NCBI GenBank assembly: GCA_000002435.2
Contig: CM018793.1
DNA from: Giardia intestinalis
Lineage: Eukaryota
Direction: 5' to 3' (one strand)
Length of the DNA: 64,000 nt
Shown here: positions 28,784-63,779 of the stretch, one piece after another
How positions within the stretch are numbered: the stretch's first letter is position 1
How the letters are laid out: each line of letters opens with the position of its first letter
Made by a program: the position numbers and the translations under genes
Notes under the pieces: model-generated
Told to the model about the DNA's origin: nothing
Seen by the model: only the letters and a program-made list of their open reading frames with translations
Databases searched by the model: none

Positions 28784-31306
28784 TCACGCTTCTTCGTTTT
28801 CTTCGCCCTCCTCTGCTGCTAATCTCTCAGCCTCTTCGCGCTCTCTTTTCAATCTCTTCTTCTCCTGCTCTGCTTCATACATTTGCCTTTGCTCTGCAAC
28901 AGGTAGCTCGTCCTCCTCAACCACGTCGAATGGCACCATGCACATGTCCGGCAGGTTGATGTTGCTCTCTACATTCGACAACGAGACCCCGTCTCCGAAA
29001 TACAGCAAAGAGTGCCGCTTTCCACGAGCCCCGTAAAGAAGATTGACCGAGCCGGGCCAGTTGGTGCAGTACACAGTCAAGAATGCGTCGCCATTCAATG
29101 GATCTTGGTGACAAGAAAATTGCCACTTGGACATAACTGTGTTAGAAACGGCCATGGAGTTCTGCAGATCCTTCTCATCGATATGGTACCTGCACTTCTG
29201 TGGAGCCTTAAAGTTAACACGGGTTCTGTCCTCGGCATCCAGGGGCTGAAAGAGCTGAGGCAGGGGTATATTTGTTTTGTTATCTAGTAGAGGGAGATCC
29301 CACGGGCATATCGGTCTGTGGAAGATGCGGAGCTTGGTCCACAACCTGTACATGTGATACTTGCACCAGTCGTCGTAGCTTCCCTCCTCTGGATCGGGTT
29401 TCTCCAGCTCCTCCACCTCGTAATCATCGGGCTCTATATGTAGGTCATCGGGGTCTGACGGATCTTCCTCTTCTTCCCCCTGATCTTCTCCTTCCTCCTC
29501 CCGCTTTGCCATGTACTTAGCAAATCTTTTTTCTCCTAGCTTTTCACGGAGCTCCTCCAGCTCACGCTCTTTCGCTTCCTTCTTTTCCTGCTTAATACGT
29601 TCGCGTTCCTCCTTGCGCTTCTGCTTAAGCGTCAACGCCACATCAACCTCCCAAGGCTCTGGGTCATCTATTGCTTCATAGTCTTCGTAGCTAAGAGGAT
29701 GTACACGGCCTTGGCCGGTGATTCGGGGCAGTAAGTAACGCCATTCTGTTGGAGATAGCAAGAGTCTTATGTTATTAAAGCCAGTAAAGTCCTCCGCGAG
29801 CTCTGCATATATAGCATCGCAGTTCTCCGGCTCTTCGTCTTCGCTTCGCTTGCTGAGGGAAGGAAAATGATAAAGTATCTCATGAACCTTTAGAGTCCGC
29901 GTGAGTTCCAAGAGCTTTCGTTCTTTTCGCAGTTCTATTGCACGAGCCTGCTTCTCGATTTCAGTAAGAATAGTCTCCTCCGGTTCTGGCTCCTCAACCT
30001 CAGCCACGTACATTTTATTCGGCACAATAGTACACTCATGCTGAATCCTTGCAATGACACAACGAAGAAGATGACTCTCCTTGCCGTCAAATCTGGGCAG
30101 GCTTGTATTAACAGTTCGCTGGAGGTTTCCTGTGAACATAAGGCTAGATGCCGGAAGAAGACTAGCAACACGCACTTGTTCAGGAGTTACTTCAGGTAAT
30201 GGAACAAAGGAAAGAGGCTTCTTGTAAAGGTTATGCAAAAGCTTATCTACAAAGGTTGGGCGCTGTTGAAGGCGGTTCTCCTTGCGGTACTGCTTCATGC
30301 GTTCCTCCTCCATGAGCTCGAGAGCAATCTGTGCTGCAAATTGAGAAAGTTCGAAATCTGTTGCAACAAAAAACACATCCTTATTAACCCCCTCGTGCTC
30401 CTCCATTGGTAGTCTATTTATGTGACTGAGAGGAAATGGCTTTCCACAGTATACAGGCACCTTTTTTGCTATTTTTGTTGGTACATTAAACTCCTCCTCG
30501 ATAGACTGGTCTGAATGAAGTTCTTCCTCGGCTTCTTCGGCCTCTCCTTTGTCTTCTTCGTTATCCTCACCGGCCTGATGGTTATCCTCACCAAGGTCAT
30601 CGCCTTCAGCGTCATCTTCATGAGCCTCTTGGTCGCCATCCTCTTCTGCCTTTTCTTCAGCCTCTTCAGCGTCTTCTCCTTCTCCCTTTTCTTCTCCGTC
30701 ATTAAGCTCTTCTTCAGGAACATCTTCAAGAGGTTCTTCTTCCACCTGCTCCTCTTCGGGCACCTCAAATTCTTCTGGAACCTCCTCTTCGGGCTCGATG
30801 TACGCATCTGTTTCCGCACGGAAGACCCAATAGCAGCCTATCTTTCCAAAGAGAGAAAGCTTATCGCCGTCACGCCCCTCTGAGGTGGCCAGACGACGCA
30901 TAGCTAACTGGAGTTCAGCGGCATCGTGAGAAGAGAAAGGAATGCCTACCACCTGGAGTCTGGTAGAAAGAGATACTAGGTCAGGAATGTCAGGGTACTC
31001 TGCAGGGTCCTCAGGCTCGGGCTCAGGTTCTGGCTCTTCCTCTTCTCCAGTGCCCGACGCTTCAAAAGTTTTATAAAACGAGTAAAGAAATTGGGACAGA
31101 AGGCGCTCATCCTGCTGGACTGTCCTAACCTGGTTGGATTGCTGCTTGCTTACAGCCAGTTCAGACGCCTCTGCTTCAAATTCACGATAAGTGCGCTCCT
31201 GTGGCGGCCTTTCCAAAAAGAGCTTGAGCAAGAAGCTTCCTATCTGATCGTAGGCGGAAACGTTGTACTTGTTCTTCCGCTTCAAATAGCTGATGCCCTT
31301 CTCCAT
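28784..31306 (-). CDS. Acidic protein with a radial-spoke-head (RSP4/6)-like N-terminus
   Basis: 840 aa. The N-terminal SAYDQIGSFLLKLFLERPPQ resembles the RSP4/6 motif NLYDHLxxLLxKILxERP. There are long Glu/Asp-rich low-complexity stretches (the Glu/Asp-rich C-terminal region of the protein). The coding status is clear. The family assignment is tentative. Confidence 0.5.
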   Translation of the reverse strand: MEKGISYLKRKNKYNVSAYDQIGSFLLKLFLERPPQERTYREFEAEASELAVSKQQSNQVRTVQQDERLLSQFLYSFYKTFEASGTGEEEEPEPEPEPEDPAEYPDIPDLVSLSTRLQVVGIPFSSHDAAELQLAMRRLATSEGRDGDKLSLFGKIGCYWVFRAETDAYIEPEEEVPEEFEVPEEEQVEEEPLEDVPEEELNDGEEKGEGEDAEEAEEKAEEDGDQEAHEDDAEGDDLGEDNHQAGEDNEEDKGEAEEAEEELHSDQSIEEEFNVPTKIAKKVPVYCGKPFPLSHINRLPMEEHEGVNKDVFFVATDFELSQFAAQIALELMEEERMKQYRKENRLQQRPTFVDKLLHNLYKKPLSFVPLPEVTPEQVRVASLLPASSLMFTGNLQRTVNTSLPRFDGKESHLLRCVIARIQHECTIVPNKMYVAEVEEPEPEETILTEIEKQARAIELRKERKLLELTRTLKVHEILYHFPSLSKRSEDEEPENCDAIYAELAEDFTGFNNIRLLLSPTEWRYLLPRITGQGRVHPLSYEDYEAIDDPEPWEVDVALTLKQKRKEERERIKQEKKEAKERELEELREKLGEKRFAKYMAKREEEGEDQGEEEEDPSDPDDLHIEPDDYEVEELEKPDPEEGSYDDWCKYHMYRLWTKLRIFHRPICPWDLPLLDNKTNIPLPQLFQPLDAEDRTRVNFKAPQKCRYHIDEKDLQNSMAVSNTVMSKWQFSCHQDPLNGDAFLTVYCTNWPGSVNLLYGARGKRHSLLYFGDGVSLSNVESNINLPDMCMVPFDVVEEDELPVAEQRQMYEAEQEKKRLKREREEAERLAAEEGEENEEA

Positions 31307-41708: not shown

Positions 41709-42620
41709 TTACTCGCTCAGGAGCGGCTCTAGAGCCAAAAGGATTGTCTTGTTGGTATCCTCTATTGTCAGAATCCGCTCAAGCACAGCGCGTAGCCGCG
41801 CTTCATCATGATCCTTCGGAAAAGGAGAATCAGAGCAAACAAGCTGAGAAGCCAATACAATCAGCTTTCTCAGGCAGATAGCCATATTATCATTAGAATC
41901 GACGGGGGCTGGGAGTTCGGTATACATTTCAGAGAAGCGGTCGCGAAGGGCTGCTGTTAGAGCTGCAAGCTCACTCTTTGGAAGGCAGCAGACCTGCGTC
42001 AATAGGGTCTCAGCATTGTTATTAACCACATCATAGTCTGCGGCATATGCTTTCAAATCGTGAAGTAAATCAGAGAAGGCACCATGAGCTCGTTGTGCCA
42101 ACTCAGCCAGGCTCATCTTCGAAAGATCGATCAGTGTTGGCTGAGAGGTAGGGGGCCGAAGAAGGCTGTACTGGGTGACGATGTCGCTCAGCGGTCCTCT
42201 CACTGTCCGGTAGGCGGAAACGTCACTGGGCGTGAGCATATCCTTTATGATAAGCTCGTCTGAAATTAAAGTGGGTTCTGTCCCTGCAGAAATGAGAAAT
42301 TGATCCAAAAGAAGGTTGTCTGAAGACACGACGTGATTTGCAAGTAATAGCACATCCTTGCATTCAGTGTATAGTGACTCTTCCAAGCCAGCAAGTGAGT
42401 CTTCCAATACAGAGACCGACTCCGTGAGGGATTCTCGACACTCGATAAAGCACTCAATGATCCCGTCGATATTAGTATCTGGGTTATATGAGCGCGGGTG
42501 TGTGTGGGCGACATATGCACACGTCATCATTGTGCGCTGCCAACGCATGAACTGCAGAGAGACGTTGAGTGCTCCGGCCAGAGCTCTGATAGTCTGCATA
42601 CACATTTTTAGCTTTTTCAT
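41709..42620 (-). CDS. Hypothetical protein (303 aa)
   Basis: ORF with ATG at 42618-42620 (complement). No recognisable domain. Confidence 0.6.
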   Translation of the reverse strand: MKKLKMCMQTIRALAGALNVSLQFMRWQRTMMTCAYVAHTHPRSYNPDTNIDGIIECFIECRESLTESVSVLEDSLAGLEESLYTECKDVLLLANHVVSSDNLLLDQFLISAGTEPTLISDELIIKDMLTPSDVSAYRTVRGPLSDIVTQYSLLRPPTSQPTLIDLSKMSLAELAQRAHGAFSDLLHDLKAYAADYDVVNNNAETLLTQVCCLPKSELAALTAALRDRFSEMYTELPAPVDSNDNMAICLRKLIVLASQLVCSDSPFPKDHDEARLRAVLERILTIEDTNKTILLALEPLLSE

Positions 42621-42624
42621 TCTC

Positions 42625-43815
42625 TCACCCTTTCCGCGCCCCCAGGAATATGGTTAAGTATTCACTTGTGTTGTTGACAGCAGTACAACTCTTACTACGG
42701 GCGTTTCCTGTTAATATTGGAGCGGGATCATTGTCATTTGAACTATCTGAGCTACCTACTAAATTCAGGCGTAAAGCCTTCACCTGATCAATCGAGCTTC
42801 GGGAGTCAGCTGTGGAGGGCAGCCCCTTTGACTCCTTGATCACCGAGGAAGTGGTGTGTATAGCACCAGGTGTCTCAAGGGTGTGAAACATCCGGTCTAC
42901 CTCACATATGTCATCAATAGTAACAAGGGGCTTTCCATATGCACACCGCTTAGTGATTGTTGTCGATGACCGTTTAACTTGCTCCTTTTCCTTTGGCACA
43001 GATCCAAAGGGAGTGTCCGCTATCGCCTGAAGCTCTGGCGAACAATTAGCCATTGCACTGGATACTAAGGATGTGAGGGGCGATGTTCGGACAGTTGCAG
43101 CTGCAGCCATGGATGTGTTATCTGACGATCCTAGTGAAGCACTTTGGTCCCCTATGCTGGGAGGGTTGTACTTATACTTTCGGATGCATGTCGATGACCC
43201 GCTGCTCGATCCACTTGTTGCACGACTTCGACTGTATCTTGGGCCAGGTAATGAAAAGTTAATTGGGGTAAGAGGCTGCTGGATGGGGGTTTTATGAACG
43301 GGTTGTATCCGGGGGCTACTAGATACGCCTGCAGAATATCCTTCTGATATTCTCTTCAGGGAAGAACGCTCTGTGGTCCGAGGGGTAGATTGACCGGCTA
43401 TTAAAGTTGTGCTGACTGAAGGTGGATCGCTATAGTTAGTCACAGGTAAAACATTCTGGGGCCGATGAAGATACAACGAAGATATATGAGGAGAATAGCC
43501 CGATGCCTCTTCAGAGCTCCGGTAATGCAATGCTGATGATAGATTTGAATTCTGTAGGAGCCCTGCTGCATCTGAGGCCCGCCGTTTGTTGTTCTGAACC
43601 AGGCTACCACTCCGCAAGGATGGTAGGACAGGAACATTGGACCTTGACCCAGACCTTGACTGATGTTGAACATCATTAAAAACCCGGCCCGACTTCAGAG
43701 AGTTCCTTCTCAGAGGTTCATTTTCGTGCACTCCAGGCTTCAGCGCCCGAAGGACCTTTTGCCTATCGACATTTGTGTATGTTATTTGCTCTAGTGGGAC
43801 TTTTGGGGTGGACAT
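42625..43815 (-). CDS. Ser-rich hypothetical protein (396 aa)
   Basis: ORF with ATG at 43813-43815 (complement). Low-complexity Ser/Pro-rich. Transcribed divergently from the repeat-containing gene across a 45-bp spacer. Confidence 0.55.
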   Translation of the reverse strand: MSTPKVPLEQITYTNVDRQKVLRALKPGVHENEPLRRNSLKSGRVFNDVQHQSRSGSRSNVPVLPSLRSGSLVQNNKRRASDAAGLLQNSNLSSALHYRSSEEASGYSPHISSLYLHRPQNVLPVTNYSDPPSVSTTLIAGQSTPRTTERSSLKRISEGYSAGVSSSPRIQPVHKTPIQQPLTPINFSLPGPRYSRSRATSGSSSGSSTCIRKYKYNPPSIGDQSASLGSSDNTSMAAAATVRTSPLTSLVSSAMANCSPELQAIADTPFGSVPKEKEQVKRSSTTITKRCAYGKPLVTIDDICEVDRMFHTLETPGAIHTTSSVIKESKGLPSTADSRSSIDQVKALRLNLVGSSDSSNDNDPAPILTGNARSKSCTAVNNTSEYLTIFLGARKG

Positions 43816-43860
43816 TTTTTGAGAGCAATAAACACATCCTCTCTAGGCTTTAACCAACAT

Positions 43861-46161
43861 ATGGACGCAGCCGAGGGTATAACTTGGAAGCCACCGGTAT
43901 ACGCCTTCAAAAGAAAGAGCGATGAGCATAAAGGTCTAGGGTCATCATTGTTTCATTCTACTAAGCCCAACAGCAATATACCCAAAGTCAAAAACGCATC
44001 TAAAACGATGAATGGTATACGACGTGGCGAAGCACTAGCGTCTACAAATCAACACACTGTCTCTCCATACCGTCCGGGGTCTCCAGAAAGAGCCACTGCA
44101 AAATTTATGAAACCACACGGAACCCACCTTTTTTCGGAGGGTGGTAACCATGTAGATATCCCTACTGCTATTTACATTGATAGCTTTTCAGAAGTTCCAG
44201 TAGATCCACCAGCAAAACCTGTAGATACTGCAAAGAAAGCTGTACCTCTTTATTTACAACGTGTCGCATCACCCCAGATATACACTGGTGAGAAGTTCTC
44301 ACCTCGCCTGCAGGGCTCTCCACAACCCTATCCAAAACTGGAGGGAGCCCCCACTAAATGCATCAAGACACGGCACGATAAGCATGATAATCTCATATTT
44401 TCATCACCAACTCAGGATGAATTGCGAGAGCATGACATCGAGATGCATGCCGTAGAAGCAATCGAAAGTGCGTTGCACATAATTTCTCTATCCAATCAGC
44501 CTCTGCACCATAGTCTTCAAAATGAAAGTTCTAACTTTCTAGAACATCAGCGACCAGAGTGGCTCCCTTCCAAGTCTAACTCCTTTACAAACAATGCCTC
44601 ACCTGTGTCAGATGTCGGAATTTCATCAAGTGATACCTTGAGCTATCCCTTTATGGAATCTTTTGAAGAAGTAGTAGACCAGCCGTCGATCAACCCCATT
44701 GAAACGGTGAATAAAACTATGCAAACACATCCTCCTCAAGATCTGACCAAACCGCGCTACGCTCTTCTTACTACTTCATCGCAGATGCAACATACTCATA
44801 GTCACATATCTTACGCAACTCCACAACCACCTTTAGCCTCAGGTGAATTCACTGACGCAGAAACAAACACTTTTAAAGGGGTAGCTATTAATTCACCGAC
44901 GCTAGGTTCAATAGAACACAATCCTTGTAGTATTTTCTCTACTAGAAGCACGCAGACAGAAGTAGACAAGCGAAAACAAGACGATCAATTCACTACAGAG
45001 CACACTATTGAGTCAAAGGATTGGTCCAACAGTAATTTCTCATCCAAGCATCCCGTATCAGCTGAATCTACAAAGAATAGTGCTAGTAGTCACACTGATG
45101 TACCAGTAGTTGATGAGAATGCTGAGCCAGAGGAAAAGATGTCATCTTTCTGGGAGGATTTACCTGGGCTGACCACATACACAATTGACTCTCCGTTACA
45201 ACAAAGCGCCCACACATTCAGCTTGTCAGCGGATGAAGACCGTAATGGTATAGGTACTAACTTAAATAAACCGTCCTACTGTGCTATTGATTCATCATCA
45301 ACGCTCACAGCAAAAAAAGATTTGACAGATCGGCCATACAAGATAGAGCAACAAAAACCCGCCGCACATATCAGGGCAGCCAGTGAGGGAATAAGCTTGC
45401 CTCCTCCATGCTCTATTTTGGGTAAGATCAAGCCCTGTGATAATGAGGAGAAAAGCTGTGATCCATCCGATAGCATATCTGAAAATTCGAAGGAAGTATT
45501 TTGCAATGATGTAGCTCTATCTAACGGTATCGAGTCTGAAGTTTGTCACTCCAGTTGGGAAGAAAATTCAGAAGAAAATCCGTACCTCGCCGTGGGAGAG
45601 GCGTACCGGGACGAGGAGCACCACCGGGACCCGCTACCCGACCGGCCCCGGGAGCGCCTGTACCTCGCCGTGGGAGAGGCGTACCGGGACGAGGAGCACC
45701 ACCGGGACCCGCTACCCGACCGGCCCCGGGAGCGCCCGTACCTCGCCGTGGGAGAGGCGTACCGGGACGAGGAGCACCACCGGGACCCGCTACCCGACCG
45801 GCCCCGGGAGCGCCCGTACCTCGCCGTGGGAGAGGCGTACCGGGACGAGGAGCACCACCGGGACCCGCTACCCGACCGGCCCCGGGAGCGCCCGTACCTC
45901 GCCGTGGGAGAGGCGTACCGGGACGAGGAGCACCACCGGGACCCGCTACCCGACCGGCCCCGGGAGCGCCCGTACCTCGCCGTGGGAGAGGCGTACCGGG
46001 ACGAGGAGCACCATCTCATACATAATCCAAATGGAAAACGCGCAAAAAATCCCTATTGGGGAATAGGAGCCGCATTTTGGTCAGAGCCCTACCACATTCA
46101 GGCACGTATAGAATATATAGAGCTTAGACAGCAGGAAAGCATAACGCACAGGCTTAAGTAA
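43861..46161 (+). CDS. Hypothetical protein containing ~5.5 tandem 26-aa repeats (PYLAVGEAYRDEEHHRDPLPDRPRER)
   Basis: The track ORF starts at a TTG (43819); the first ATG is at 43861. It is open to the TAA at 46159-46161. Its C-terminal part is encoded by a perfect 78-bp tandem array. Confidence 0.7.
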   Translation: MDAAEGITWKPPVYAFKRKSDEHKGLGSSLFHSTKPNSNIPKVKNASKTMNGIRRGEALASTNQHTVSPYRPGSPERATAKFMKPHGTHLFSEGGNHVDIPTAIYIDSFSEVPVDPPAKPVDTAKKAVPLYLQRVASPQIYTGEKFSPRLQGSPQPYPKLEGAPTKCIKTRHDKHDNLIFSSPTQDELREHDIEMHAVEAIESALHIISLSNQPLHHSLQNESSNFLEHQRPEWLPSKSNSFTNNASPVSDVGISSSDTLSYPFMESFEEVVDQPSINPIETVNKTMQTHPPQDLTKPRYALLTTSSQMQHTHSHISYATPQPPLASGEFTDAETNTFKGVAINSPTLGSIEHNPCSIFSTRSTQTEVDKRKQDDQFTTEHTIESKDWSNSNFSSKHPVSAESTKNSASSHTDVPVVDENAEPEEKMSSFWEDLPGLTTYTIDSPLQQSAHTFSLSADEDRNGIGTNLNKPSYCAIDSSSTLTAKKDLTDRPYKIEQQKPAAHIRAASEGISLPPPCSILGKIKPCDNEEKSCDPSDSISENSKEVFCNDVALSNGIESEVCHSSWEENSEENPYLAVGEAYRDEEHHRDPLPDRPRERLYLAVGEAYRDEEHHRDPLPDRPRERPYLAVGEAYRDEEHHRDPLPDRPRERPYLAVGEAYRDEEHHRDPLPDRPRERPYLAVGEAYRDEEHHRDPLPDRPRERPYLAVGEAYRDEEHHLIHNPNGKRAKNPYWGIGAAFWSEPYHIQARIEYIELRQQESITHRLK
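45581..46013 (+). repeat. Perfect 78-bp tandem repeat array (~5.5 copies), GC-rich, in frame within a CDS
   Basis: The unit CGTACCTCGCCGTGGGAGAGGCGTACCGGGACGAGGAGCACCACCGGGACCCGCTACCCGACCGGCCCCGGGAGCGCC is repeated head to tail. Copies after the first start at 45659, 45737, 45815, 45893 and 45971. The only difference seen is CGCCTG versus CGCCCG at the first junction. The last copy is truncated at about 46013. Confidence 0.95.
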
Positions 46162-46196
46162 TCTTCTTCATCAAAGTAACATTTAATTAAAAAGCT

Positions 46197-47906
46197 ATGA
46201 GCACAAGAGACAAGCGTTTCTCTAAAATTGGAAGGGATTCGCGCTTTATACAACTAGAATCACGAACATCTCGTAAAGAAAACGTCGATGGTGATGCCCG
46301 CTTTGCAAACCTGGGCAAGTCTATTGCGGACATGGCCATGGAAACAAAGTCGTCTAAGACTCATAGTACAGAAGAAATGCAGTCTGACCATTCTAGTGAT
46401 GAGCATGCAGAGCCAATAGAAGAGGAGTATCCTCTTAATTCTGACGATCTTGAGGACGAAGTAATTCCATACGTGGACGGAGAAGAATCAACGTCTTTGG
46501 CCATCGTTAACATGGATTGGGACCACATAAAAGCTGCCGATCTGTATGTCGTGCTCCATTCCTTTCTGCCAGCGACAGGAAAGCTGGAGCATGTCAGGGT
46601 GTTTATGTCTGAGTTCGGACGTGAGAGATTGGCCCAGGAAGCAGTCAAAGGCCCGGGATTGGATGCTTATGTCGATAAGGAGCGAGAAAAGATATTTGCT
46701 GAATACCGGAGGAACATGGACAGCGGGGCGGTAGAGTTTAAGAACACTAAGCAGGTGCCGGTGACGAAGTTATCTTCAGAATACTACGACATTAAGGATT
46801 ACTTTGATGCTAACGCTGATGAAGCAGAAGCAGCTGCAGAGAATGCTATTCGGCGCTACGAGCTCGACCGCATGCGTTATGCCTTTGCAATAGCTAAGTT
46901 TAATTCCATACAGACCGCTTCTAACATTTACTCGCAGTTAAATGGCGTGCTCTTTGAACGCTCCAGTTGCACACTAGATCTGCGCGTAGTTATGTTGGAG
47001 GACGAGGCTCAGTTCCTGAAGGGGGACAAACTGATTCCCGTTGCAGAAGGAGGATGGCTGATGGACGCGTGCTTTTCTTTTCCGCAACTCTACGCTGCAA
47101 AAGATGACTTCGAAACGAAAGCGCTCCAAAAGACAAAACCCGAGCTCACATGGGACCAAACAGATCCTGATCGGTTGAAGATAACCACCCGGAAACTATC
47201 GAACGAGGAGGCGCACGATTGGGCAAATGACCCGGCCAACCAGTTTATTGCCATGAGCGATGAAGATGAGAGCGATGGAGCAGGCCGCTTTGATCTTTTA
47301 ACAGGTAATCATAAGACAGAAGATGATAGTAGTGACAGCAATGATGATGATGATGGAAGCAGTATCGGATCAGATGAGCCACAGCACGGCAAGCACAGTA
47401 AGCACAGCAAAGACGACCTTTTTATAAGCTTTGATTCCATACTAACAGGTAGTTCAGTACCAGGTCGGTCAATAATGGCCCCAACTGTGCAAACTCCGTT
47501 TCAAAAGTACCTTGAGCAGCGGACAAAAGAGAAAAAGGCCAATCAACAAGCTCAGAAGGATGAAACAGCACTTGCGAGTTCCCCTAAAGGTCGCGCTGAT
47601 GATAGTAGTTTCAGTCTAGTTGTGACTAGAAAGGAGAAGCTCCTTCAGCAAAAGATCAGTGACGCCAAGCTATCGGGAAACTCTCGCAAGCTGAGGCGGC
47701 TAACCAGCGACCTGCAGAAGCTCTACGATGAGAACCCGTGGCTATCATCCACTGCAGTTTCAGAGGGTGACATTCTGGCTGATGACCGTTTTGCAGCGGT
47801 TCTGCAGAATGGGCGGGAATTCCACATCGACACGTCCATCCAGGAGTATCGAGAGGGAGGCGATCTATCGTCGGTGATTACTGCTCAGCGAAAAATCAGA
47901 CGGTGA
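46197..47906 (+). CDS. ESF1: ESF1-like pre-rRNA processing protein (NUC153 domain)
   Basis: 569 aa. The N-terminal repeated DxRF motifs are KRFSKIGRDSRF and DARFANLG. The central block SLAIVNMDWDHIKAADLYVVLHSFLPATGKLEHVRVFMSEFGRERLAQEAVKGP matches the conserved ESF1 core (RLAVVNLDWDHVKSEDL...SSF.P..G.I.SV.IYPSEFGKERM..EE.EGP). The C-terminus is acidic. An AGTAAAT lies 27 nt after the TGA. Confidence 0.7.
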   Translation: MSTRDKRFSKIGRDSRFIQLESRTSRKENVDGDARFANLGKSIADMAMETKSSKTHSTEEMQSDHSSDEHAEPIEEEYPLNSDDLEDEVIPYVDGEESTSLAIVNMDWDHIKAADLYVVLHSFLPATGKLEHVRVFMSEFGRERLAQEAVKGPGLDAYVDKEREKIFAEYRRNMDSGAVEFKNTKQVPVTKLSSEYYDIKDYFDANADEAEAAAENAIRRYELDRMRYAFAIAKFNSIQTASNIYSQLNGVLFERSSCTLDLRVVMLEDEAQFLKGDKLIPVAEGGWLMDACFSFPQLYAAKDDFETKALQKTKPELTWDQTDPDRLKITTRKLSNEEAHDWANDPANQFIAMSDEDESDGAGRFDLLTGNHKTEDDSSDSNDDDDGSSIGSDEPQHGKHSKHSKDDLFISFDSILTGSSVPGRSIMAPTVQTPFQKYLEQRTKEKKANQQAQKDETALASSPKGRADDSSFSLVVTRKEKLLQQKISDAKLSGNSRKLRRLTSDLQKLYDENPWLSSTAVSEGDILADDRFAAVLQNGREFHIDTSIQEYREGGDLSSVITAQRKIRR

Positions 47907-58961: not shown

Positions 58962-61085
58962 CTAGTCCAGTTTCCCCATAAAGTCTATAATGTTAATGCA
59001 CATACTCTCAAAGCAAACAATTGCAGATATCACAATAGCCGTTATAGCGATTGCCTTGCGCCTTTTGGTCATCTTTGCCAGCTCAGCTTCTCTGTTTATC
59101 GCGCCACAGATGTTCCCTATCTCTACCTGCTGCGCCTCTGCAACGGCAGGCATAATATCCGGTAGTCCACGCGCGCTGTCACTTTCTTCTTCTGTCGATT
59201 CGGTGTACTCTGCCCCAGCTTTGTTCTGAATCTTGTAGGAGCGTTCTCTCGTGCTCTCGCCTGCTCCATCGCGAAGTTCATCGTTCTGGGGGAGATTTGG
59301 TGTGTCATCGTACTTGCCGTCTATGCTATCGATGTCATGCGGTGTCTGACTGGTCGAGCCTCGGAAGCGTGAATTGACCAGTGAACTGTTGTTCCTGCTT
59401 TTTGTGACCATACTCGCTCGGCGGGAGCTGGCTTTGGGAGCCGAGATGTTGACGATGAAAGACGAGGTCCTGTCGCGACCACCCGTCAATGGAGCCCCCG
59501 TGTCAACTGTTGTAAGAGGAGGCAGAGTCGAACCTCGTGCCGCCTCGAAGTTTGTGGCGGCGCTGGAGAGCGTCCTCCCACGCATGAAACCAATGAGAGA
59601 TCCCGTGCGCATAACAGAAACCCCGCGGGAGCGATTGACGGTGACCTCCACCGCATTCACATCCACTGGTGCGGCTGTACTGATAGATCTTGCCCTGGTT
59701 ATGGCATCCTTGACGTCTCCTGGCAGCATAAGGGCCATCAAAGAAGTCCCAACAGCCTCTGTCTCAATAACGCCATTTTCATCAGCAGCTTCGCGAAACT
59801 CCTGACCGACATCGTTTTTTGACTCTACGCGAAGAATGGGGAGCTTGTAATATACCCAAATGGGGACCCCGAAATATAAGATGCCGCCACAGATAGACCC
59901 TAAAAGTCCAAATATGGCGGCAATATTTTCGTAAACTAACGCTACACCGAACCCGAAGATGACAAACGCAAGAGTTAAGCCTGCAAAGATGCCGTACCAA
60001 CGCTTGGGCTCGATGTCCTTATCAATCTTAATGTAGGAAAATATCGAGAGCTTTAGAGGATACAAAACTAGGGGATAGGCCACACAAACAACTAATGCGT
60101 AAAGAATCTTGATCACCACAATCCAATAATCACTGCAAATGTCAAATGACTTCAAAACGTTTGAATCTATAGTCTTCCCAAAGATTAGCGCACCAAAAAA
60201 TCCCACCAGACAATATAGAACTGTGCACAAAGACATGGCAATAATTATAGACAACTTTAGCACACGCATGCGAAGGTAAAGAGGGCCTTTTAACATGCTT
60301 AGCATTGGTGGGGTTACAAGCTGTGCTGTGTAGTTTCCTTGAAGCATGGGTATGTAGCTGAAGAAGAACAGGAACCCCATGGGCAGGGACCCGAGCCCCA
60401 ACCCCTTGCTCGGGGACGGCCACCAGGGGACCGCAGGGCGGAAGAAGCCCCCTGCCGTGCTGCCGTCGGTCGGCTTTGCCGAAGGAAAGCGAGGGCAGAC
60501 CTGCCCGTTGCGTCCGAGGGAGATGAAGTAGTATACAGGGATGGTGACGGCCATGCCCATCGCAAAGAAGATGGAGACAGACGCTATGGCAGAAAGCACC
60601 TTCGTGGACTTGAGGAGAGAAAGAGGAAGGATGATGAGGAAGGAGACGCCGGCTTTTATCACGTATGGTATCCACTTGTGTGAGTCGAACGAAGGAAGGA
60701 ACGACTGCAGAATCCCAATAACTGATTGGCTAGCAATGATGATGTAGCTCGTAAGAAAGCCAAAGTAGAGAACTATAAGCATTGCATCTAGAGTGTATGC
60801 GAACTTTGGCCCAATAACCTTTTGGGTTAGTGCCCGATAGGAGTAAGACCGCGTAAGGTAGCAAGCCTCTATATATCCAAGAATGAGATACAAAGAGATC
60901 CCCAGCGAAATAGGTATAATGAAGAACGTTAAGGTGAAACCAATCCTTGAGAAGATGTATGCAATAGACAAAAGCGAGGCCCCTACTATCTGAGACATTA
61001 ATGTGAAGGATGTTGATGTAGACGAGTTCTCTTCACTGTCCCTCTTTGCATCAGATTTGCCTCGGCTACGCTCATCGGGCGACAT
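58962..61085 (-). CDS. Amino-acid transporter-like polytopic membrane protein (AAAP/SLC38-type) with a large hydrophilic insert
   Basis: 707 aa. The N-terminal region FTLMSQIVGASLLSIAYIFSRIGFTLTFFIIPISLGISLYL resembles the Aa_trans start (FNLxNxIIGAGILxLPYAFxxxG). There are about 10-11 predicted TM helices, and a Ser/Thr/Arg-rich loop of about 200 aa in the middle. Confidence 0.6.
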   Translation of the reverse strand: MSPDERSRGKSDAKRDSEENSSTSTSFTLMSQIVGASLLSIAYIFSRIGFTLTFFIIPISLGISLYLILGYIEACYLTRSYSYRALTQKVIGPKFAYTLDAMLIVLYFGFLTSYIIIASQSVIGILQSFLPSFDSHKWIPYVIKAGVSFLIILPLSLLKSTKVLSAIASVSIFFAMGMAVTIPVYYFISLGRNGQVCPRFPSAKPTDGSTAGGFFRPAVPWWPSPSKGLGLGSLPMGFLFFFSYIPMLQGNYTAQLVTPPMLSMLKGPLYLRMRVLKLSIIIAMSLCTVLYCLVGFFGALIFGKTIDSNVLKSFDICSDYWIVVIKILYALVVCVAYPLVLYPLKLSIFSYIKIDKDIEPKRWYGIFAGLTLAFVIFGFGVALVYENIAAIFGLLGSICGGILYFGVPIWVYYKLPILRVESKNDVGQEFREAADENGVIETEAVGTSLMALMLPGDVKDAITRARSISTAAPVDVNAVEVTVNRSRGVSVMRTGSLIGFMRGRTLSSAATNFEAARGSTLPPLTTVDTGAPLTGGRDRTSSFIVNISAPKASSRRASMVTKSRNNSSLVNSRFRGSTSQTPHDIDSIDGKYDDTPNLPQNDELRDGAGESTRERSYKIQNKAGAEYTESTEEESDSARGLPDIMPAVAEAQQVEIGNICGAINREAELAKMTKRRKAIAITAIVISAIVCFESMCINIIDFMGKLD

Positions 61086-61756: not shown

Positions 61757-62533
61757 ATGCGATGTGACTGGGAGGTCGTAAAGCGCTGCTTTGAAGCCCA
61801 ACCAAACTTTGCTGACTATATCCCATCCAAGAAAAATGGCCTGTTTCCTGTAGATGAGAATATGGTCTTTCGAGCTCTGAATTTGGTTGGGAGTCCGCGA
61901 AATGTGCGTATTATCATAGTGGGCCAGGACCCCTATCCTCGTGCAGAATCTGCCGTCGGCATCTCATTCTTAGACGGTGCAGTCGAAAGCTTTCAGAGTC
62001 CTCGGCTAGCTCCAAGTGTCAGGCACGTGCTGCAGGCCATCTTGGTTTCTCGCAAACTAATGGGCCCCCAGGACAGCGTTGATAAATTGCGTGCTGTCTT
62101 GAAGGACAACATCGGAGAAACGCAGACAGAATGGTTTACCTCCCTTGCTACGCGATGCGGTGTTCTGTGGCTTAACCGAAGCCTAACGTTCGGAGGAAAG
62201 GACCCAAAGACCTTGCAAGTGCACCTGACATTTTGGAAGCCTGTTATAGAGACCATTCTGGAGGAGGTTGTGCGAGCAAGGACAAGCAGCGGATTGATTG
62301 TTTTGCTCTGGGGCGCGAAAGCAGCTGATCTTAGGCCCGTCTTGGTAGGGCTTGCAAACAAGCATAAAAACTGCTCTATGAAGCTCCTTTTAAATGTCCA
62401 CCCTCTAGGCCACACCTTTCCCGGCGCAGGAGTATTTGAAGCAGTAAAAAAGGTCGAGGAGGAGCTCAAGATGGGTGTAACTGACTTTCTATCTGCGACG
62501 GTTTCTAAACATGACCACAGTGATGAATTGTGA
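61757..62533 (+). CDS. UNG: Uracil-DNA glycosylase (UNG, family 1)
   Basis: 258 aa. The water-activating loop is IIIVGQDPYPRAESAVGISFL (compare GQDPYH...AHGLCFS). Also matched are VLWLNRSLTF (VLLLNAVLTV), IVLLWGAKAA (VFLLWGSYAQ) and HPLGHTFPGAGVF (HPSPLSVYRGFFG). The start codon lies only 8 bp after the TAA of the upstream cyclin gene. Confidence 0.88.
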   Translation: MRCDWEVVKRCFEAQPNFADYIPSKKNGLFPVDENMVFRALNLVGSPRNVRIIIVGQDPYPRAESAVGISFLDGAVESFQSPRLAPSVRHVLQAILVSRKLMGPQDSVDKLRAVLKDNIGETQTEWFTSLATRCGVLWLNRSLTFGGKDPKTLQVHLTFWKPVIETILEEVVRARTSSGLIVLLWGAKAADLRPVLVGLANKHKNCSMKLLLNVHPLGHTFPGAGVFEAVKKVEEELKMGVTDFLSATVSKHDHSDEL

Positions 62534-62674
62534 TAAAACTGGCTCTTTCAAAAACCTTCAAATTAAAAACTATGATGAGGTTAGCGATCCCAAGCGGGGC
62601 CTGGCCCTGCGTTGCAGACAACGCATCACCGCTCTGACCTTTACTAAATGCTGAGTGTGGCTCTGAGGGCTTTT

Positions 62675-63544
62675 CTACTGGAACACACTCACAATGGTTC
62701 GATTGGCAAGGACAGCTGCAGATGGACATAACCCGCAAAGGATAGAGTCTAAATCTGTGCTACTTTGGGGACGAATCTCCTTACCCACCAAAACGTGGTT
62801 TGTCAGGCGTCGTGCACTACCCGATACCAGTGTGGTTTTGCAGGCACTCATATCCTTGATGGGACCGGGATGACACAGGACTGTATCAGCTACCTCTTCT
62901 GGGTGAGCCGAAGAAAGATCCAGTAAGTGAATTGCGGATGAGCTTGTTCCCGCCAATACCCCGCCCCAGGGAAGAGCTGCTAACCTCGTGACCGTCGTAC
63001 CCCTTGTCGGTGAATCAGCATAGCGCTTGAAGCGAAGCTCTAGGCATGGCGTTTTCCTCCCTATCCGAGCATCAACCACCGAGATAATGTCTTCACAGGC
63101 GGCGCATATGCACCCAAATGTCGGGAGCACAGCTGCATGTGATGAGCAGAGCCTGAAGTGCCTGGAAGCGTCAGAATAGATGGGCATAGTGTGCACAAAA
63201 ACATTCTTGCTGGGGTCATAGATTGTCACCATCCCTCGAGACGTGCTTGCTACCACGAGCTCATAAGCATTTGGGCCCATAGCATGCAAGGAGGTGAGAA
63301 ACGCGGAATCTAACTTCATAGATATTCTATCACCAATTGCTATCTCACCGTTTCTGAAGCTGCAGTACAGCTTGTGCCCCGCTGCCAAGGCTGTCACAGG
63401 CGCGTTTTGAAGACTGCATGAGACGATGATTCTAGTTTGCTGGGCGTTGCTTCCAGTTGTTGAAATGTGCGTCACGCTTCCGCTATATGATCCAATTGCA
63501 TACCCATCTTCGAATTCAACGAGACCGCACGGTGGCCTGCTCAT
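62675..63544 (-). CDS. Hypothetical protein, possibly WD40/beta-propeller-like (289 aa from the first ATG)
   Basis: The track ORF (to 63604) begins at a TTG. The first ATG is the complement of 63542-63544. Repeated strand-like segments (VTALAAGHKLYCSFRNGEIAI, MVTIYDPSKNVFVHT, AIHLLDLSS) suggest WD-like blades, but no clear WD dipeptides are present. Confidence 0.45.
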   Translation of the reverse strand: MSRPPCGLVEFEDGYAIGSYSGSVTHISTTGSNAQQTRIIVSCSLQNAPVTALAAGHKLYCSFRNGEIAIGDRISMKLDSAFLTSLHAMGPNAYELVVASTSRGMVTIYDPSKNVFVHTMPIYSDASRHFRLCSSHAAVLPTFGCICAACEDIISVVDARIGRKTPCLELRFKRYADSPTRGTTVTRLAALPWGGVLAGTSSSAIHLLDLSSAHPEEVADTVLCHPGPIKDMSACKTTLVSGSARRLTNHVLVGKEIRPQSSTDLDSILCGLCPSAAVLANRTIVSVFQ

Positions 63545-63779
63545 GCAAGGAATTTGGAGCGTCGCACTCAGCTTTCTATGCTGTGCAGTGGCCGGTAAGG
63601 GCAAATCCGTCGCCTGGAGAAGCTCAAACCAGCAGGAAAGATGTCGTGGGAACCCAGAGAGGTGCCGAATCGAGGCATCAAGGCCAGGACCGCGAACGTT
63701 ATAACCACTTGGTGGATCCAGCGATGGAATAAATTAGAAATTTACCTACTGCAAACCGTAACACACTAAGTGCAGAGAA

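Follow-up and report, generated by a model that had tools for sequence, protein, structure and literature searches.

An in-frame coding minisatellite in a hypothetical-protein gene of Giardia intestinalis: unit number, homogenisation and third-position GC content

Tandem repeats within coding sequence have been described in Giardia for genes that encode variant-specific surface proteins (vsp genes), in which in-frame, near-identical units (195 bp in vspA6, 105 bp in vspC5) are arranged head to tail, differ in copy number between alleles and isolates, and are condensed by assemblers (PMC2996952). An array of the same general kind lies in a stretch of 64,000 nucleotides (nt) of the G. intestinalis WB contig CM018793.1, the whole of which is referred to here as the window. 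The array occupies positions 45580-46013 on the plus strand, within the gene GL50803_00137720, and each of its 78-bp units adds 26 residues to a hypothetical protein. In all the properties listed above it resembles the vsp repeats. It differs from them in that the unit is shorter (78 bp versus 105-516 bp) and one half of it encodes a motif under strong purifying selection, and in that the host protein is devoid of CXXC motifs, a signal peptide and a VSP domain.

Another system that invites comparison is the ribosomal DNA (rDNA) of Giardia, which has a GC content of about 75%, spacers included, and for which GC-biased gene conversion (gBGC) has been proposed (PMC10123126). Like the rDNA, the array described here is homogenised and far richer in GC than the genome, with 76% compared with about 75%. 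Unlike the rDNA, which is multicopy and subtelomeric, it measures only 434 bp and resides in a single-copy coding gene in the interior of the chromosome, where the bias is visible at synonymous sites under coding constraint. Concerted evolution together with gBGC in tandem arrays, namely rDNA, was reportedly treated by Escobar, Glemin and Galtier in 2011 (cited in PMC10123126). The locus also resembles the multivalent repeats of short linear motifs found in disordered protein regions, in which a conserved motif alternates with variable proline-rich spacers, but in contrast to the known systems of this type neither a Pfam family nor a remote homologue could be found for the host protein. Finally, typing in Cryptosporidium makes use of minisatellite and microsatellite loci with variable numbers of tandem repeats, or VNTRs (PMC7034008). 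The literature searched contains minisatellite typing for other parasites only and none for Giardia.

Structure of the array and concerted evolution of its units

Tandem Repeats Finder placed the array at 45580-46013 (period 78, 5.6 copies, 99% matches, 0% indels, score 861) and returned no other strong array within the 64-kb window. The 434 nt contain 5.56 head-to-tail copies, that is, five full units (45580-45657, 45658-45735, 45736-45813, 45814-45891 and 45892-45969) followed by a partial unit of 44 nt (45970-46013). A 42-mer taken from the unit matched six times when up to three mismatches were allowed, compared with no match in 100 dinucleotide-preserving shuffles. The unit comprises 26 codons in frame with the open reading frame (ORF) 43861..46161, and none of the copy numbers found in assemblages A1, A2, B and E disrupts this frame. 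The sole variant position within the array is 45659, at which T replaces C in the first codon of unit 2 and thereby changes proline to leucine (CCG to CTG); the same Pro/Leu alternation recurs in P15 (unit 1) and in a WB-type database entry of 818 residues, P0005 (units 2, 4 and 7). The array is therefore an in-frame coding minisatellite, or VNTR, a well-known kind of feature.

The original prediction, derived from the letters of the window, had described a near-perfect 78-bp array of about 5.5 copies with one difference, encoding a 26-residue repeat inside a protein-coding gene, and this description holds. The start that it assigned, 45581, is one base late, and the strong GC excess that it noted is real but was set too low at about 70%, the measured value being 0.759. 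It had furthermore dismissed as spurious two long ORFs overlapping the array. Both exist, one of 160 residues in an alternative frame at 45543..46025 (+) and one of 157 residues in antisense orientation at 45546..46019 (-), and both are indeed spurious products of base composition. They are open because the unit is so poor in T (6%) and A (17%): five or all six of its six frames are free of stop codons, including all three on the plus strand, and the chance that a 26-codon frame contains no stop at this composition is about 0.78. The prediction had missed the division of the unit into a motif half and a spacer half, the older copy of the motif downstream of the array, and the concentration of the GC excess mainly at third codon positions and its confinement to the tract.

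Each unit begins with a motif of 15 residues, PYLAVGEAYRDEEHH, and continues with a Pro/Arg-rich spacer of 11 residues. The motif half of unit 1 extends over 45580..45624 (+), and motif halves start every 78 nt at 45580, 45658, 45736, 45814, 45892 and 45970. The spacer half of unit 1, RDPLPDRPRER, extends over 45625..45657 (+) and recurs at the same interval in the five full units. The motif shows 100% identity when assemblage A is compared with B and 93% when A is compared with E, versus 64% and 55% for the spacer, which points to strong purifying constraint on the motif and to fast evolution of the spacer. A diverged copy of the motif, PYWGIGAAFWSEPYH, lies at 46051..46095 (+), 12 codons past the array, and does not vary among A, B and E. 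Aligned with the motif it scores 38-51 (BLOSUM62), compared with a maximum of about 15 ± 4 for shuffled sequences, and none of 3000 shuffles reached the observed value. The start-to-start distance of 27 residues places it nearly in register with the 26-residue period. The match over the 15 residues and the near-register spacing indicate that the array stems from an older tandem duplication of a single motif, of which it is the young, homogenised part. By its length the array would determine how many times a single short linear motif is displayed on a tail predicted to be flexible, with the invariant older copy adjoining. The function most likely served by such an arrangement is a putative multivalent binding to a partner, the valency of which would be set by the copy number.

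The age of the array was examined by comparison with orthologous DNA of P15, DH, GS, BAH15c1, one assembly from Logan and one from the European Nucleotide Archive (ENA). The array is found at the same place in every lineage compared, that is, in assemblages A1, A2, B and E. Full units of 78 nt differ by 0.4-2.0 nt within arrays versus 9.5-12.5 nt between lineages. The spacers are uniform within arrays and specific to the lineage, being RDPLPDRPRER in A, QAPLPVRPQEN in E and TAPLPSRPREN in B; most of the lineage-specific changes affect the second half of the unit, and all units of the lineage concerned share them. As judged from these alignments, the occurrence of lineage-specific changes in every unit together with the low level of difference within arrays shows that concerted evolution keeps the units near-uniform within each lineage, and that the array is old and predates the separation of A, B and E instead of having expanded recently.

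The ends of the array depart from this uniformity. The terminal partial copy has kept an ending of its own, …RDEPYH or …RDELYH, in B and E and carries the internal sequence …RDEEHH in A, and private variants occur in the first units (CCC in GS, CCA and AAG in DH, CTG in P15). Such edge effects fit an exchange between misaligned units. The original prediction had ascribed the near-identity of the units to very recent expansion or to ongoing homogenisation. The latter is borne out by the lineage-specific substitutions in every unit and the former is contradicted by the presence of the array in A1, A2, B and E, so that a refined form of that interpretation is supported, in which near-identity results from the homogenisation of an old array and not from recent expansion. 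The length polymorphism that it expected between isolates was recovered in silico, with 7.6, 5.6, 3.6 and 2.6 units across assemblies.

Number of units and behaviour in assemblies

Units were counted as full units plus 0.6 for the partial unit, and all copy numbers are assembly-derived. The window, which belongs to the PacBio assembly of WB, contains 5.6 units, as does GS (assemblage B). BAH15c1 (B) has 3.6 units, and DH (A2) and P15 (E) have 2.6 units each. The highest number, 7.6, is that of P0005, which equals WB at all 573 residues upstream of the array and in the whole tail and differs only in the array; the first residues of its units read PLPLPPLP, versus PLPPPP in the window. P0005 presumably represents the earlier WB gene model. 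GS and BAH15c1 are 100% identical over 568 codons upstream and 48 codons downstream (616 codons, about 1.85 kb) and differ solely in the array, both in the number of units and in the distribution of the variants GGA and GGG.

Short-read assemblies from Logan and ENA contain 0.6-1.6 units even when their flanks are identical to those of WB; P0006 has no flank difference from WB, yet only 0.6 units. When arrays were sought in further lineages by way of the neighbouring gene ESF1, three Logan contigs (L007, 1-233; L008 and L009, 1-207) were recovered that represent two further Giardia lineages, with ESF1 79% and 82% identical to that of WB. All three break off at the array's 3' edge, inside the terminal motif copy, and provide only this copy. 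Two other candidates, L010 and L011, were rejected as further arrays; they derive from an unrelated organism and show no synteny. The array is a reproducible contig breakpoint. Because short-read assemblies collapse the array or break there, not all assembly-derived copy numbers are trustworthy, and this includes the 5.6 units of the window. The locus is very probably length-polymorphic.

Third codon positions, proposed mechanism and alternatives

The GC content of the array, 0.759, contrasts with 0.436 for the gene outside the array and 0.480 for the window. No other GC peak in the 64 kb is as strong; in 150-nt windows it exceeds the mean by about 6 standard deviations. GC content at third codon positions (GC3) is 0.92 in the array versus 0.37 elsewhere in the gene (Fisher p = 5e-36; p = 1e-8 when a single unit is used), and this contrast is common to every lineage sampled, with 0.81-0.93 in the array. 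Along the gene, GC3 is 0.25-0.30 in the 40 codons upstream of the array, 0.93-1.00 in the motif halves and 0.91 in the spacer halves of every lineage. The first nine codons of the terminal copy, which are homogenised, have a GC3 of 0.78-1.00. Its last six codons have 0.17-0.33 in B and E, where they are not homogenised, and 0.67-0.83 in A, where they have been overwritten. GC3 is 0.17-0.50 in the 12-codon spacer that follows the array and 0.40-0.53 in the invariant older motif PYWGIGAAFWSEPYH; in the lineage represented by L007 the terminal motif copy has a GC3 of 6/16. At the level of single codons, Arg-Asp-Glu is encoded by CGC GAC GAG in the tract versus CGT GAT GAA in B where the terminal copy is not homogenised. 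The equal GC3 of the constrained and the unconstrained half of the unit, combined with the low values outside the tract, indicates that the enrichment follows the DNA that takes part in exchange between units and not the constraint on amino acids. A rise of GC3 that is confined to the tract and independent of amino-acid constraint is what would be looked for under gBGC, and it is what the array displays.

Giardia is tetraploid and binucleate, and there is continuing debate about its sexual or recombinational biology. If units of the array misalign during recombination or repair, whole units of 26 codons would be added or removed, candidate routes being unequal exchange between sister chromatids or homologues, replication slippage and gene conversion. 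Exchange would also spread variants along the array, with less participation of the edge units, and in this manner the last six codons of the terminal copy would have escaped homogenisation in B and E and have been overwritten in A. GC-biased repair of the heteroduplexes formed during exchange is the most likely source of the extreme GC3, which would then be a by-product. Taken as a whole, an old coding VNTR under concerted evolution that presents a variable number of motifs and would have acquired its GC3 as a by-product is the explanation that we consider probable.

Several points weigh against this explanation. The copy numbers are all taken from assemblies, and one isolate type yields both 5.6 and 7.6 units, a discrepancy that could arise from allelic variation, from drift in culture or from an error of assembly or polishing. 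The argument for the GC bias is that high GC3 and the homogenised tract coincide in space, and on such correlational evidence the derivation of the GC3 excess from GC-biased repair during conversion is a possibility that falls somewhat short of even; the further proposal that the array is a natural reporter of gBGC in Giardia is tentative. GGA, which ends in A, and not GGG has spread to all units of WB (DH has GGG), opposite to the direction of the predicted bias. Moreover, the transporter gene at 58962..61085 contains a non-repetitive GC3 island, so that local GC3 peaks in Giardia need no repeats. The multivalent function of the motif, lastly, is a proposal drawn from conservation.

The transporter island, at 60307-60580 within ORF 58962..61085 (-), is the second-strongest GC island of the window, with a GC content of up to 0.72 in 150-nt windows. 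Over 60 codons its GC3 is 0.88 versus 0.56 gene-wide in WB, and the orthologous block of B has 0.70 versus 0.46. The island encodes a conserved, non-repetitive segment of an Aa_trans amino-acid permease, and in the orthologous block of G. muris GC3 is not raised relative to the gene average.

Other explanations concern either the variation in unit number and its significance or the origin of the GC excess. If the real length of the array were fixed, and perhaps longer than assembled, collapse or mis-polishing could have created the differences in copy number. This would agree with the 0.6-1.6 units found between WB-identical flanks in short-read assemblies, the termination of three Logan contigs at the 3' edge of the array, the occurrence of both 5.6 and 7.6 units in one isolate type, and the warning given for vsp genes that assembly may condense repeats (PMC2996952). 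An array of 434 nt is, however, short enough to be spanned by Sanger, 454 and PacBio reads, and the independent assemblies of WB, GS, DH and P15 obtained on those platforms disagree in the number of units. The arrays also differ in their internal patterns of variants (GGA/GGG and the Pro/Leu positions), which simple collapse would not make, and split-read checks of the 2020 WB assembly report no misassemblies. A pure assembly artefact is for these reasons rather improbable. Far less credible still is a repeat that acts as an immunodominant surface antigen and is selected by host immunity, comparable to the tandem repeats of VSPs. Coding tandem repeats in vsp genes vary in copy number and can be immunodominant (PMC2996952), and a VSP gene is found near the orthologous locus in P15, but the protein encoded here has no VSP Pfam domain, no cysteines in the unit, no segment that attains transmembrane level and no hydrophobic N-terminus, and the invariance of the motif between A and B is the opposite of diversifying selection.

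With regard to the GC excess, selection for translationally optimal codons in a functionally important repeated motif would be in line with codon usage in G. duodenalis, in which 26 of 26 optimal codons end in G or C and the codon adaptation index correlates with GC3 at synonymous sites (GC3s) with r = 0.90 (PMC8393687), and with the location of the transporter GC3 island in a conserved protein segment. Such selection does not explain why the fast-evolving spacer, with 0.91, has the GC3 of the constrained motif half, why the most conserved segment, PYWGIGAAFWSEPYH, is so much lower, or why identical Arg-Asp-Glu residues have GC-ending codons in the units and AT-ending codons in the terminal copy of B. 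In addition, the GC3 of 0.37 in the rest of the gene is among the lowest in the window, which argues against selection on the mRNA at the level of expression, and codon optimisation is thus an improbable cause. The reverse order of events, in which the unit was GC-rich from the beginning, by chance or by insertion of GC-rich DNA, and such units expand or persist, receives some support from the GC-richness of the first and second codon positions of the spacer (0.68-0.82). It is also compatible with the high GC3 in every sampled lineage, since the enrichment is older than the A/B/E split and its build-up is not observable. Import of rDNA or foreign DNA is nevertheless unlikely, and was discarded as an origin, because the unit has a paralogue next to it in the host gene, namely the motif copy that is AT-rich at third positions, and hence points to local duplication. 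A search of Rfam with 45300-46300 (E ≤ 1) matched no family, rRNA included, and two units folded no more stably than composition-matched shuffles (z = +0.66 as DNA, +0.88 as RNA), which lends no support to a structured RNA or DNA element and offers no special hairpin that might drive slippage. Since the terminal copy of L007 moreover presents the motif with ordinary codon usage, an initial GC-richness that acted as the cause is unlikely, and GC3 as a by-product of exchange between units is preferred.

Host gene, neighbourhood and significance

The ORF at 43861..46161 (+) matches exactly the 766-residue hypothetical protein of GL50803_00137720 from G. intestinalis WB C6 (XP_037902204.1/KAE8305040.1), in which the array is located near the C-terminus. 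A Pfam scan of the protein matched no family and no VSP domain, and the protein contains neither a hydrophobic segment nor a signal-like N-terminus, the maximum hydropathy over 19 residues being 0.94, below the transmembrane threshold. An AlphaFold2 model based on an alignment of four sequences has a mean predicted local distance difference test score (pLDDT) of 32.9 and a predicted template modelling score (pTM) of 0.18, and only a helix at residues 185-211 and a C-terminal helix at residues 743-765 reach pLDDT values of 56-73. The model fits a mostly disordered protein, a statement weakened by the shallow four-sequence alignment.

A word-indexed search identified homologues in DH (DHA2_151320, A2), P15 (GLP15_744, E) and assemblage B (GSB_151920 and QR46_3034). 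Over the whole protein, amino-acid identity is 52% between A and B and 75% between A and E. When 1.84 billion representatives were searched exhaustively with a HMMER profile, no homologue beyond the G. intestinalis complex came up; G. muris proteins were present in the database searched, and the missing G. muris homologue is therefore meaningful. The syntenic region of G. muris (L013) contains all the conserved neighbours, namely ESF1, Yip1, an LRR protein, RsmB and zf-rbx1. It has no detectable repeat gene (best tblastn E = 2.3), and the gene adjacent to ESF1 is on the opposite strand. By these comparisons the host gene is a fast-evolving orphan restricted to the G. intestinalis complex. No paper was found in the literature that mentions 137720 in its main text, and the gene was not found in the atlas of 608 localised proteins, supplements included.

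Annotated proteins of the host gene range from 645 to 818 residues. The gene models DHA2_151320, GSB_151920 and QR46_3034 and the Logan calls start with 'MRAIN…', 14 codons upstream of the WB start (43819-43860). The upstream codon is TTG in WB, DH and GS, which makes the ATG at 43861 credible and likely the true start, and the extended N-termini would seem to be artefacts that arise when starts are called in prokaryote style.

Between zf-rbx1 and ESF1, at 41709-46161, three genes encode proteins of 303 (-), 396 (-) and 766 (+) residues, none of which has a clear counterpart in the rearranged G. muris region (L013 12149-16331). The only similarity of the 396-residue protein is a match of 15 residues (E = 0.03) to a G. 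muris gene of 293 residues. These three genes may form a small island in which genes evolve fast or are specific to the lineage. In P15 (E) the position occupied by the LRR and zf-rbx1 genes in WB and DH, about 2.5 kb upstream of the orthologous locus, is taken by a VSP gene, an arrangement that fits the reported breaks of synteny at multigene families. Elsewhere in the window, the only other match of Tandem Repeats Finder is a weak two-copy, CT-rich repeat of 36 nt (77-80% matches) at 30623-30713, inside ORF 28784..31306 (-), which is old, diverged and without GC enrichment. The C/D-box small nucleolar RNA GlsR16 was identified at 62565-62641 (+) (Rfam RF02338, 106 bits, E = 8e-28), where it lies between the ORFs 61757..62533 and 62675..63604.

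The locus is a candidate marker whose length polymorphism distinguishes isolates as close as GS and BAH15c1. It is at the same time a trap for assembly and annotation, in which collapsed and broken arrays are accompanied by predicted proteins of disparate length and by two spurious ORFs. The 15-residue motif and its invariant older copy point to the functional core of an otherwise fast-evolving orphan and provide a handle for experiments. The coincidence of GC3 with the homogenised tract, the boundary of which has moved in assemblage A while AT-ending codons are encountered a few bases outside, makes the array a small and clean case compatible with a GC bias linked to recombination, in an organism in which recombination is hard to observe. 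If the relationship were true genome-wide, GC3 would offer a readout, from sequence alone, of the place and strength of recombination-associated repair in Giardia, and it would back gBGC as the explanation of the uniquely GC-rich rDNA of this organism.

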